From Escherichia coli (GTDB lineage: Bacteria; Pseudomonadota; Gammaproteobacteria; Enterobacterales; Enterobacteriaceae): 64,000 nt of DNA. A model generated the notes under the pieces. The model had not been told where the DNA came from. It saw nothing but the letters and a program-made list of their open reading frames with translations, and did no database searches. Each line of letters opens with the position of its first letter. Position 1 is the stretch's first letter. A program made the position numbers and the translations under genes. The stretch is taken from assembly GCF_016026235.1 (NCBI RefSeq), contig NZ_CP065613.1; one strand, given 5' to 3'. Positions 50,075-55,072 of this stretch are shown here, piece after piece.

Positions 50075-52609
50075 ATGGCCGGGAATGACCGCGAGCCAAT
50101 TGGACGCAAAGGGAAACCGACGCGTCCGGTCAAACAAAAGGTAAGCCGTCGTCGTTACGAAGATGACGATGATTACGACGATTATGATGACTATGAGGAT
50201 GAAGAACCGATGCCGCGCAAAGGTAAGGGCAAAGGCAAAGGGCGTAAGCCTCGTGGCAAACGCGGCTGGCTATGGCTGCTGTTAAAACTGGCTATCGTTT
50301 TTGCCGTGCTGATCGCCATTTACGGCGTTTATCTCGATCAAAAAATTCGTAGCCGTATTGATGGCAAGGTCTGGCAACTGCCTGCGGCAGTTTATGGCCG
50401 AATGGTCAACCTTGAGCCAGACATGACCATCAGCAAGAACGAGATGGTGAAGCTGCTGGAGGCGACCCAGTATCGCCAGGTGTCGAAAATGACCCGTCCT
50501 GGCGAATTTACCGTGCAGGCCAACAGCATTGAGATGATCCGCCGTCCGTTTGATTTCCCGGACAGTAAAGAAGGGCAGGTGCGTGCGCGTCTGACCTTTG
50601 ATGGTGATCATCTGGCGACGATCGTCAATATGGAGAACAACCGTCAGTTCGGCTTTTTCCGTCTTGATCCGCGTCTGATCACCATGATCTCTTCGCCAAA
50701 CGGTGAGCAGCGTCTGTTTGTGCCGCGCAGTGGTTTCCCGGATTTGCTGGTGGATACTTTGCTGGCGACAGAAGACCGTCATTTTTACGAGCATGACGGC
50801 ATCAGCCTCTACTCCATCGGACGTGCGGTGCTGGCAAACCTGACCGCAGGTCGCACGGTACAGGGTGCGAGTACGCTGACGCAACAGCTGGTGAAAAACC
50901 TGTTCCTCTCCAGCGAGCGTTCTTACTGGCGTAAAGCGAACGAAGCTTACATGGCGCTGATCATGGACGCGCGTTACAGCAAAGACCGTATTCTTGAGCT
51001 GTATATGAACGAGGTGTATCTCGGTCAGAGCGGCGACAACGAAATCCGCGGCTTCCCGCTGGCAAGCTTGTATTACTTTGGTCGCCCGGTAGAAGAGCTA
51101 AGCCTCGACCAGCAGGCGCTGTTAGTCGGTATGGTGAAAGGGGCGTCCATCTACAACCCGTGGCGTAACCCAAAACTGGCGCTGGAGCGACGTAATCTGG
51201 TGCTGCGTCTGCTGCAACAGCAACAGATTATTGATCAAGAACTCTATGACATGTTGAGTGCCCGTCCGCTGGGGGTTCAGCCGCGCGGTGGGGTGATCTC
51301 TCCTCAGCCAGCCTTTATGCAACTGGTGCGTCAGGAGCTGCAGGCAAAACTGGGCGATAAGGTAAAAGATCTCTCCGGCGTGAAGATCTTCACTACCTTT
51401 GACTCGGTGGCCCAGGACGCGGCAGAAAAAGCCGCCGTGGAAGGCATTCCGGCACTGAAGAAACAGCGTAAGTTGAGCGATCTTGAAACTGCGATTGTGG
51501 TCGTCGACCGCTTTAGTGGTGAAGTTCGTGCGATGGTCGGAGGTTCTGAGCCGCAGTTTGCGGGCTACAACCGTGCGATGCAGGCGCGTCGTTCGATTGG
51601 TTCCCTTGCAAAACCAGCGACTTATCTGACGGCTTTAAGCCAGCCGAAAATCTATCGCCTGAACACGTGGATTGCCGATGCGCCAATCGCGCTGCGTCAG
51701 CCGAATGGCCAGGTCTGGTCACCGCAGAACGATGACCGTCGTTATAGCGAAAGCGGCAGAGTGATGCTGGTGGATGCGTTGACCCGTTCGATGAACGTGC
51801 CGACGGTAAATCTGGGGATGGCGCTGGGGCTGCCTGCAGTTACGGATACCTGGATCAAACTGGGCGTACCGAAAGATCAGCTGCATCCGGTTCCGGCGAT
51901 GCTGCTGGGGGCGTTGAACTTAACGCCAATCGAAGTGGCGCAGGCGTTCCAGACCATCGCCAGCGGTGGTAACCGTGCACCGCTTTCTGCACTGCGTTCG
52001 GTAATCGCGGAAGATGGCAAGGTGCTGTATCAGAGCTTCCCGCAGGCAGAACGCGCTGTTCCGGCGCAGGCGGCGTATCTGACACTATGGACCATGCAGC
52101 AGGTGGTACAACGTGGTACGGGTCGTCAGCTTGGGGCGAAATACCCGAACCTGCATCTGGCAGGGAAAACAGGGACTACCAACAATAACGTAGATACCTG
52201 GTTTGCAGGCATTGACGGCAGCACGGTGACCATCACCTGGGTAGGCCGTGATAACAACCAGCCGACCAAACTGTATGGAGCCAGCGGGGCAATGTCGATT
52301 TATCAGCGTTATCTGGCTAACCAGACGCCAACGCCGCTGAATCTTGTTCCGCCAGAAGATATTGCAGATATGGGCGTGGACTACGACGGCAACTTTGTTT
52401 GCAGCGGTGGCATGCGTGTCTTGCCGGTCTGGACCAGCGATCCGCAATCGCTGTGCCAGCAGAGTGAGATGCAGCAGCAGCCGTCAGGCAATCCGTTTGA
52501 TCAGTCTTCTCAGCCGCAGCAACAGCCGCAACAGCAACCTGCTCAGCAAGAGCAGAAAGACAGCGACGGTGTAGCCGGTTGGATCAAGGATATGTTTGGT
52601 AGTAATTAA
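50075..52609 (+). CDS. mrcB: Penicillin-binding protein 1B (bifunctional glycosyltransferase/transpeptidase)
   Basis: 844-aa product from [14 protein letters not shown]...; acidic [15 protein letters not shown] tract, TM helix, GT and TP motifs. Confidence 0.95.
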
Positions 52610-52757
52610 CATCTAAGCGTGAAATACCGGATGGCGAGTTGCCATCCGGTAAAATAACATCCCATCTAAGATATTAACCCTTTCTTTTCATCTGGTTGTT
52701 TATTAACCCTTCAGGAACGCTCAGATTGCGTACCGCTTGCGAACCCGCCAGCGTTTC

Positions 52758-52790
52758 GAATATTATCTTATCTTTATAATAATCATTCTC
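52758..52790 (+). promoter_or_regulatory. Fur-box-like sequence in fhuA promoter region
   Basis: GAATATTATCTTATCTTTATAATAATCATTCTC overlaps the Fur consensus GATAATGATAATCATTATC pattern, about 40-70 bp upstream of fhuA ATG. Confidence 0.55.
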
Positions 52791-52828
52791 GTTTACGTTA
52801 TCATTCACTTTACATCAGAGATATACCA

Positions 52829-55072
52829 ATGGCGCGTTCCAAAACTGCTCAGCCAAAACACTCACTGCGTAAAATCGCAGTTGTAGTAGCCACAGCGGTA
52901 AGCGGCATGTCTGTTTATGCACAGGCAGCGGTTGAACCGAAAGAAGACACTATCACCGTTACCGCTGCACCTGCGCCGCAAGAAAGCGCATGGGGGCCTG
53001 CTGCAACTATTGCGGCGCGACAGTCTGCTACCGGCACTAAAACCGATACGTCGATTCAAAAAGTGCCACAGTCTATTTCTGTTGTGACCGCCGAAGAGAT
53101 GGCGCTGCATCAGCCGAAGTCGGTAAAAGAAGCGCTTAGCTACACGCCGGGTGTCTCTGTTGGTACGCGTGGCGCATCCAACACCTATGACCACCTGATC
53201 ATTCGCGGCTTTGCGGCAGAAGGCCAAAGCCAGAATAACTATCTGAATGGCCTGAAGTTGCAGGGCAACTTCTATAACGATGCGGTCATTGACCCGTATA
53301 TGCTGGAACGCGCTGAAATTATGCGTGGCCCGGTTTCCGTGCTTTACGGTAAAAGCAGTCCTGGCGGCCTGTTGAATATGGTCAGCAAGCGTCCGACCAC
53401 CGAACCGCTGAAAGAAGTTCAGTTTAAAGCCGGTACTGACAGCCTGTTCCAGACTGGTTTTGACTTTAGCGATGCGTTGGATGATGACGGTGTTTACTCT
53501 TATCGCCTGACCGGTCTTGCGCGTTCTGCCAATGCCCAGCAGAAAGGGTCAGAAGAGCAGCGTTATGCTATTGCACCGGCGTTCACCTGGCGTCCGGATG
53601 ATAAAACCAATTTTACCTTCCTTTCTTACTTCCAGAACGAGCCGGAAACCGGTTATTACGGCTGGTTGCCGAAAGAGGGAACCGTTGAGCCGCTGCCGAA
53701 CGGTAAGCGTCTGCCGACAGACTTTAATGAAGGGGCGAAGAACAACACCTATTCTCGTAATGAGAAGATGGTCGGCTACAGCTTCGATCACGAATTTAAC
53801 GACACCTTTACTGTGCGTCAGAACCTGCGCTTTGCTGAAAACAAAACCTCGCAAAACAGCGTTTATGGTTACGGCGTCTGCTCCGATCCGGCGAATGCTT
53901 ACAGCAAACAGTGTGCGGCATTAGCGCCAGCGGATAAAGGCCATTATCTGGCACGTAAATACGTCGTTGATGATGAGAAGCTGCAAAACTTCTCCGTTGA
54001 TACCCAGTTGCAGAGCAAGTTTGCCACTGGCGATATCGACCACACCCTGCTGACCGGTGTCGACTTTATGCGTATGCGTAATGACATCAACGCCTGGTTT
54101 GGTTACGACGACTCTGTGCCACTGCTCAATCTGTACAATCCGGTGAATACCGATTTCGACTTCAATGCCAAAGATCCGGCAAACTCCGGCCCTTACCGCA
54201 TTCTGAATAAACAGAAACAAACGGGCGTTTATGTTCAGGATCAGGCGCAGTGGGATAAAGTGCTGGTCACCCTGGGCGGTCGTTATGACTGGGCAGATCA
54301 AGAATCTCTTAACCGCGTTGCTGGGACGACCGATAAACGTGATGACAAACAGTTTACCTGGCGTGGTGGTGTTAACTACCTGTTTGATAATGGTGTAACA
54401 CCTTACTTCAGCTATAGCGAATCGTTTGAACCTTCTTCGCAAGTTGGGAAGGATGGTAATATTTTCGCACCGTCTAAAGGTAAGCAGTATGAAGTCGGCG
54501 TGAAATATGTACCGGAAGATCGTCCGATTGTAGTTACTGGTGCCGTGTATAATCTCACTAAAACCAACAACCTGATGGCGGACCCTGAGGGTTCCTTCTT
54601 CTCGGTTGAAGGTGGCGAGATCCGCGCACGTGGCGTAGAAATCGAAGCGAAAGCGGCGCTGTCGGCGAGTGTTAACGTAGTCGGTTCTTATACTTACACC
54701 GATGCGGAATACACCACCGATACTACCTATAAAGGCAATACGCCTGCACAGGTGCCAAAACACATGGCTTCGCTGTGGGCTGACTATACCTTCTTTGACG
54801 GTCCGCTTTCAGGTCTGACGCTGGGCACCGGTGGTCGTTATACTGGCTCCAGCTATGGTGATCCGGCTAACTCCTTTAAAGTGGGAAGTTATACGGTCGT
54901 GGATGCGTTAGTGCGTTATGATCTGGCGCGAGTCGGCATGGCGGGCTCCAACGTGGCGCTGCATGTTAACAACCTGTTCGATCGTGAATACGTCGCCAGC
55001 TGCTTTAACACTTATGGCTGCTTCTGGGGCGCAGAACGTCAGGTCGTTGCAACCGCAACCTTCCGTTTCTAA
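52829..55072 (+). CDS. fhuA: Ferrichrome outer membrane transporter FhuA (TonB-dependent)
   Basis: 747-aa ORF with signal peptide, TonB box and C-terminal ...ATATFRF. Confidence 0.95.
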   Translation: MARSKTAQPKHSLRKIAVVVATAVSGMSVYAQAAVEPKEDTITVTAAPAPQESAWGPAATIAARQSATGTKTDTSIQKVPQSISVVTAEEMALHQPKSVKEALSYTPGVSVGTRGASNTYDHLIIRGFAAEGQSQNNYLNGLKLQGNFYNDAVIDPYMLERAEIMRGPVSVLYGKSSPGGLLNMVSKRPTTEPLKEVQFKAGTDSLFQTGFDFSDALDDDGVYSYRLTGLARSANAQQKGSEEQRYAIAPAFTWRPDDKTNFTFLSYFQNEPETGYYGWLPKEGTVEPLPNGKRLPTDFNEGAKNNTYSRNEKMVGYSFDHEFNDTFTVRQNLRFAENKTSQNSVYGYGVCSDPANAYSKQCAALAPADKGHYLARKYVVDDEKLQNFSVDTQLQSKFATGDIDHTLLTGVDFMRMRNDINAWFGYDDSVPLLNLYNPVNTDFDFNAKDPANSGPYRILNKQKQTGVYVQDQAQWDKVLVTLGGRYDWADQESLNRVAGTTDKRDDKQFTWRGGVNYLFDNGVTPYFSYSESFEPSSQVGKDGNIFAPSKGKQYEVGVKYVPEDRPIVVTGAVYNLTKTNNLMADPEGSFFSVEGGEIRARGVEIEAKAALSASVNVVGSYTYTDAEYTTDTTYKGNTPAQVPKHMASLWADYTFFDGPLSGLTLGTGGRYTGSSYGDPANSFKVGSYTVVDALVRYDLARVGMAGSNVALHVNNLFDREYVASCFNTYGCFWGAERQVVATATFRF

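Follow-up and report, generated by a model that had tools for sequence, protein, structure and literature searches.

The DNA analysed here, a stretch of 64,000 nucleotides from an Escherichia coli genome that we refer to as the window, carries the ferrichrome uptake operon fhuACDB between mrcB and hemL. The genes of the operon and the intergenic region that precedes them are:

52610-52828, mrcB-fhuA intergenic region, 219 bp, 39% G+C
52829-55072, + strand, fhuA coding sequence, specifying a ferrichrome outer-membrane transporter of 747 aa (open reading frame and RefSeq annotation)
55123-55920, + strand, fhuC, co-transcribed with fhuA
55920-56810, + strand, fhuD, co-transcribed with fhuA
56807-58789, + strand, fhuB, co-transcribed with fhuA

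The coordinates of fhuC, fhuD and fhuB were carried over from K-12, from which these genes diverge by 1.3-1.9% without indels. The ATG of fhuA at 52829 corresponds to K-12 position 167484, and 10 of the 2244 bases of the gene differ between the two strains. The genes that flank the mrcB-fhuA spacer diverge from their K-12 counterparts by 0.5-2%, and the window strain is therefore a non-K-12 strain, yet all 219 bp of the spacer are identical to those of K-12 MG1655. A 341-bp query round the Fur site described below found matches in 5421 of 5426 complete E. coli genomes, with mrcB and fhuA as the annotated features.

The spacer between fhuB and hemL (58790-58823) measures 34 bp in the window versus 157 bp in K-12, so that ~123 bp of the K-12 sequence are missing from the window strain. 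At the other side of the operon, directly 3' of the mrcB stop codon (52622-52648), lies an inverted repeat, CCGGATGGC-GAGTT-GCCATCCGG, that is not followed by a run of T residues and that may terminate mrcB transcription or form a REP-like hairpin; it was absent from the output of a terminator scan of the window.

Promoter and transcription start of the operon

The following promoter elements, of which the two hexamers come from a consensus scan, precede fhuA:

52737-52742, + strand, -35 hexamer TTGCGA of the sigma-70 promoter of fhuA
52761-52766, + strand, -10 hexamer TATTAT
52773, + strand, transcription start site (TSS) of fhuACDB, equivalent to K-12 167428 and 7 nt 3' of the -10 hexamer TATTAT

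The hexamers (9 of 12 matches to the consensus), the 18 nt that separate them and the mapped TSS agree in identifying this arrangement as a sigma-70 promoter. Start-site data for K-12 can be applied to the window because the intergenic regions are identical. By Cappable-seq, the K-12 + strand has a strong start at 167428 (score 31.4), the next one being a weak site at 167477. SMRT-Cappable-seq located the start at 167427 for the transcripts b0150, b0150-b0151 and b0150-b0152, with long reads that run from the fhuA TSS into fhuC and fhuD. A start has also been mapped for the fhuA gene of Klebsiella pneumoniae, 55 nt before the ATG and just downstream of the same TATTAT, which compares with a 5' untranslated region (UTR) of 56 nt in E. 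coli; the start-site table of Kim et al. (2012) contains a fhuA TSS for Klebsiella and none for E. coli.

Two other assignments of the fhuA promoter exist in the literature, one with a TSS equivalent to 52787 (PMC6397515) and one with a -10 near 52800 (Shultzaberger et al. 2007). The latter was predicted at 29 nt before the ATG and is not backed by the start-site data. On the strength of those data and of conservation across genera, we favour the TATTAT promoter over both. Either of the other assignments would alter the geometry of repression that is considered below, not the fact of repression.

The SMRT-Cappable-seq data also include "novel" start sites inside the 3' part of fhuA, at 54468 and 54559 (K-12 169123 and 169214), that belong to fhuC and fhuC-fhuD transcripts. 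Their existence suggests that fhuA contains internal promoters from which the ABC transporter genes could be transcribed without the promoter under Fur control.

Score, architecture and placement of the Fur site

A preliminary description, made from the sequence of the window, had called attention to a Fur-box-like sequence upstream of fhuA at 52758-52790 (GAATATTATCTTATCTTTATAATAATCATTCTC), with a proposal that it overlaps the promoter and mediates iron repression. We scored the window with a position weight matrix (PWM) trained on 17 published Fur targets from which fhuA was excluded. The training set was composed of footprinted regions and the strongest-site coordinates of Chen et al. (2007), extracted from NC_000913.3 and aligned by iterative refinement, and the 9-1-9 register of the matrix is the register of the single-dimer model of Chen et al. 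(2007). The elements recognized in this way are:

52775-52793, no strand assigned, core Fur site TATAATAATCATTCTCGTT, a 9-1-9 inverted repeat centred at 52784 (+3 to +21)
52769-52799, no strand assigned, Fur cluster of 31 bp, consisting of three overlapping 19-bp sites 6 bp apart
52782-52790, ATCATTCTC, inside the Fur core
ATAATAATCATTCTC, inside the fhuA Fur operator

The core scores 21.1 bits and ranks first among the ~64,000 positions of the window, where the runner-up scores 13.8 bits. When the 17 training sites, which had been footprinted or gel-shifted, were scored by leave-one-out, their median was 20.9 bits (range 8.9-28.1), so that by the PWM comparison that had been proposed as a check the fhuA core behaves as a Fur site of ordinary strength. 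The likeness to a Fur box that had been noted upstream of fhuA is thus upheld, as the best score in the 64 kb and one far above chance. The core differs from the ChIP-exo motif TGAnAATnATTcTCA by two mismatches. In the 9-1-9 register the three members of the cluster, with centres at 52778, 52784 and 52790, score 8.5, 21.1 and 4.2 bits, respectively, and the summed score of the cluster, 38.3, is the maximum of the window. Overlapping sites at intervals of 3 or 6 bp have been described for Fur clusters.

With the classical 19-bp register, two sites are recognized in this DNA, one at 52772-52790 (14.0 bits) and the other, 6 bp further on, at 52778-52796 (14.2 bits). As a pair with 6-bp spacing they score 14.0, the best value in the window (the next being 8.6). 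No such pair turned up in 200 dinucleotide-preserving shuffles of the window, and 2 of 5000 shuffles of the 219-bp intergenic region produced one; a single site of at least 14 bits was produced by 2% of the intergenic shuffles. The classical matrix, built on the seed GATAATGATAATCATTATC, was rejected as the main test. It gives only ~14 bits here, and since three unrelated window positions also reach this value, the Fur score varies with the register in which the model is built. We retained the classical register for the pair statistic, while noting that the 9-1-9 register discriminates far better. A plain count of mismatches to the classical box was likewise found too weak to be used alone, the site having 5 mismatches and 7 other places in the window doing as well.

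Elsewhere in the window the matrices find matches at 33201-33219, 15635-15653, 61770-61788 and 945-963, which reach 14-16 bits (classical register) and 13.8 bits (9-1-9 register). All of them lack a partner at 6 bp and probably reflect chance or coding sequence. A weak PWM site of 10.2 bits, AACAGAAATAATTCTCGAA, is found at 31816-31834 inside panD (K-12 146482-146500), where it overlaps a W3110 Fur ChIP-exo peak at 146495-146507; the coincidence of the two implies that Fur may bind within this coding sequence.

The interval of the preliminary description covered 16 of the 19 bases of the core but missed its 3' end, and the true site lies ~10 nt further 3'. The first ~10 bases of that interval (52758-52768) hold the -10 hexamer TATTAT and have no Fur score. 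With the TSS at 52773, the core extends from +3 to +21 and the cluster from -5 to +27, which places the core downstream of +1 and leaves only a weak flanking site to reach as far as -5. Fur thus covers the TSS and the DNA that is transcribed first, not the -10 and -35 elements, while still falling within the footprint of RNA polymerase. The proposed overlap with the promoter holds in the latter sense and not for the hexamers themselves.

A different geometry for the same Fur operator, which we regard as rather unlikely, would result from a promoter with TATAAT at 52775-52780 as its -10 and a TSS at ~52787. The Fur core would then lie on the -10 (about -12 to +7) and repression would take the form of classical -10 occlusion, as was assumed, after the promoter assignment by Huerta and Collado-Vides, in a study of the regulator HypT in Salmonella Typhimurium (PMC6397515; Jo et al. 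2019, PNAS 116:3740). In E. coli this TATAAT agrees perfectly with the -10 consensus, and the numbering used in that study for the DNase I footprints of HypT on Salmonella fhuA (+7 to +21 and -111 to -97) implies a TSS equivalent to 52787. Against this arrangement stand the Cappable-seq results, which include no TSS between 167428 and 167477, the SMRT-Cappable-seq start at 167427, and the 55-nt UTR of Klebsiella, which fits a start at 52773 and not one at 52787. In addition, T52775, with which the E. coli TATAAT begins, is replaced by C in ~70% of species, compared with a conservation of 95-98% for TATTAT and for TTGC in the -35 hexamer, and there is no acceptable -35 sequence 16-18 nt upstream of TATAAT, a promoter that the consensus scan did not report. 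A corollary of the start at 52773 is that the TSS of the Salmonella study, equivalent to K-12 167442 and derived from a computational promoter assignment, would lie 14 nt downstream of the Cappable-seq TSS, with Fur at +3 to +21 and not on the -10.

Conservation of the operator and the adjoining block

With FhuA as the query we collected 78 loci from contigs representing one genome per species, which encompass ~25 genera of Enterobacteriaceae together with Hafnia and Ewingella and encode proteins of 58-99% identity to the query. In 76 of the 77 usable loci no Fur site in the 250 nt that precede the gene outscores the orthologous sequence, ATAATAATnATTnTCGTT, which lies ~45 nt before the ATG; it scores at least 12 bits in those 76 loci and at least 15 bits in 72 of the 77. 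The site is kept although the identity of FhuA falls to 58%. The one exception, Enterobacter sp. BIGb0383 (locus L065, 1440-1475), is without the conserved promoter block. The upstream region of fhuA in this strain is unrelated to the others and has a Fur-like sequence of its own, GCGATAATAACTCTCATTC, ~40 nt before the ATG.

Across 72 distinct upstream regions the mean conservation is 0.95 for the -35 hexamer, 0.98 for the -10 hexamer, 0.96 for the Fur core and 0.97 for the block at 52793-52807 that follows it; outside these islands it is 0.69-0.76. A stretch of 33 bp in the initial transcribed region, 52776-52808, is almost invariant across the ~25 genera. Among the 5426 complete genomes of E. 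coli, a 56-bp query (52757-52812) was present as a single copy in 5420 and identical to the window in 4180.

About 10% of the complete E. coli genomes match the region 52610-52750 only in part. In two strains that were examined, genes for a fimbrial usher and a fimbrial protein replace mrcB upstream of fhuA; in these strains clear homology restarts just before the -35 hexamer, and neither of the promoter hexamers nor the Fur block is altered.

No RNA structure was predicted for the 5' UTR, the fold being no better than the folds of shuffled sequences (z = +0.77), and a search of Rfam yielded no significant match, its best result being a potC RNA (E = 0.44) located outside the UTR and far below the gathering score. 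An explanation of the conserved 5' UTR at the level of RNA was rejected as unlikely on these two grounds, and the conservation is for the same reasons better explained at the level of DNA.

The conservation extends beyond the Fur core into elements that can be compared with the HypT footprints of Salmonella:

about 52793-52808, no strand assigned, conserved block TTACGTTATCATTCAC, adjoining the Fur core; conservation 0.97 (72 regions), as high as that of the core
52800-52808, ATCATTCAC, in the conserved block; in phase with the core sequence ATCATTCTC at a distance of 18 bp
52676-52690, no strand assigned, AACCCTTTCTTTTCA, putative counterpart of the distal Salmonella HypT footprint, by homology only

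Three observations argue for a function of the block. The motif ATCATTCnC of the core is repeated 18 bp downstream of the core copy, within 52794-52808, and the MG1655 Fur ChIP-exo peak (52801-52811) falls on this DNA, which has no score as a complete Fur site. In addition, 52793-52807 (TTACGTTATCATTCA) is identical at 15 of 15 positions to the proximal Salmonella HypT footprint. The distal sequence at 52676-52690 matches its Salmonella equivalent, AACCCTTCCTTTTCA, at 14 of 15 positions, and 102 nt separate it from the proximal site in both genomes. Sequence identity and spacing both point to a candidate HypT operator, which shares only base 52793 with the Fur core. The block may represent an extension half-site for Fur, an operator for HypT, or both.

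We tentatively consider the possibility, for which we would give somewhat less than even odds, that the operator is larger than its Fur box, either through an in-phase Fur half-site that would serve for cooperative extension or as a composite operator that Fur and HypT would share. A composite operator of this kind, if real, would integrate the signals of iron and hypochlorite at a single promoter.

It is very improbable, in our estimation, that the block functions chiefly as an operator for a different regulator, be it the LysR-type hypochlorite sensor HypT or some other factor, and that the likeness to Fur sites is secondary. Such a reading would draw on the presence of the Salmonella footprint sequence at 52793-52807 and of the distal site at 52676-52690, and on a block as conserved as the Fur core. 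However, the HypT footprint adjoins the core, with a single base in common, and the core is a Fur site of median strength. Moreover, the gel shift of a fhuA oligonucleotide by Fur, the ChIP-exo results and the effects of a fur deletion, all described below, indicate direct control by Fur. The two regulators are in any event compatible with each other and not mutually exclusive.

Iron control of fhuACDB and comparison with known operators

The fhuA Fur site is already known, having been predicted, gel-shifted and mapped by ChIP before. The comparison with K-12 that had been proposed for the window leads to this published site. Chen et al. (2007, NAR 35:6762) list in their Table 4 a fhuA cluster at K-12 167439, which is 52784 in the window, with 19.5 bits, three walkers and a span of 31 bp, and report a positive gel shift for fhuA; the strongest of their walkers coincides with the core found here. 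In gel-shift experiments, Fur at 150 nM retarded an oligonucleotide based on the site predicted for fhuA. The papers examined included no DNase I footprint for Fur at this promoter, and Chen et al. (2007) mark fhuA with a "G" for gel shift and not with an "F" for footprint.

Fur ChIP-exo under iron-replete conditions gave a peak at 167456-167466 for MG1655 and one at 167456-167468 for W3110. The former (P3) corresponds to 52801-52811 of the window and is displaced from the PWM core by 8-18 bp in the 3' direction. As measured by RNA-seq, deletion of fur increased the expression of fhuA relative to the wild type by log2 +1.09 in MG1655, a modest derepression of ~2-fold, and by log2 +5.0 in W3110, and fhuC, fhuD and fhuB were also increased. 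Repression by Fur has furthermore been measured with a fhuA promoter-lacZ fusion, in which it was stronger anaerobically. The iron repression of fhuACDB that had been proposed for this sequence is thus borne out by the published fusion, by derepression in fur deletion strains and by ChIP-exo at the promoter. A report on a PfhuA expression vector (PMC3621691) concerns the fhuA promoter of Vibrio cholerae and was set aside as evidence for this reason.

Two further MG1655 ChIP-exo peaks, P2 and P4, correspond to window 52563-52599, in the 3' end of mrcB, and 52986-53017, in the 5' part of fhuA, ~200 bp from the promoter. No matching Fur PWM site was found at either (5.3 and -5.7 bits, respectively).

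We conclude, with a probability of about 95%, that 52769-52799 is the Fur operator of fhuACDB and mediates repression of the operon when iron is sufficient. The present analysis established where the site lies, how high it scores, how rarely it arises by chance, how it is built and how well it is conserved; Fur binding, Fur-dependent expression and the TSS are taken from published experiments. A chance likeness of an AT-rich promoter to the AT-rich Fur consensus might be suspected from the 39% G+C of the intergenic region, the three unrelated sites of about equal score in the classical register and the 2% of intergenic shuffles with at least 14 bits, but it is in practice refuted by the published gel shift and ChIP-exo data, and it is further opposed by the published expression data, by a 9-1-9 score 7 bits above that of any other window position, by the 6-bp pair that none of 200 window shuffles reproduced and by the conservation of the site across ~25 genera.

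From the geometry of the site and the general Fur model (Chen et al. 2007) we infer a steric mechanism of repression and the number of dimers that take part in it. When iron is sufficient, Fe2+-Fur dimers would bind to the 9-1-9 repeat at 52775-52793 and, more weakly, to the overlapping sites 6 bp to either side of it. The cluster (-5 to +27) would then be occupied within DNA that RNA polymerase requires at the promoter, with the consequence that polymerase binding or the formation of the open complex would be blocked. When iron is scarce, Fur would lose its metal and leave the DNA, and the ferrichrome uptake operon would be transcribed. The fhuA Fur site is a textbook example of how iron represses the operon of a siderophore receptor, and it matters little beyond its correct annotation. 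The by-products of its analysis are precise window coordinates for the promoter, the TSS and the Fur cluster, support for the TATTAT promoter and the recognition of the conserved adjoining block.

Three comparisons place the operator among known systems. The fhuA Fur cluster of K-12 (Chen et al. 2007; Shultzaberger et al. 2007, NAR 35:771, their Fig. 7b) has the same sequence, and its centre, its three sites and its 31-bp span were reproduced here with an independent PWM; the operator of the window strain shows no difference from that of K-12, and the two strains differ in the flanking genes only (0.5-2%). The fhuA promoter of Salmonella Typhimurium (Jo et al. 2019) is nearly identical to that of the window and has both HypT footprint sequences and their 102-nt spacing in common with it. 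The footprints were obtained on Salmonella DNA, and the two E. coli sequences are putative targets of HypT.

With the footprinted Fur operators of fepA-fes, entC, cir, fecA, fhuF and tonB, the fhuA operator shares the 9-1-9 or 7-1-7 inverted repeat and the overlapping sites at 6-bp intervals; like them it lies inside the RNA polymerase footprint and serves for repression by Fe2+-Fur. It differs from these operators in that its strong site is situated just downstream of +1 and not across the -35 and -10 hexamers.
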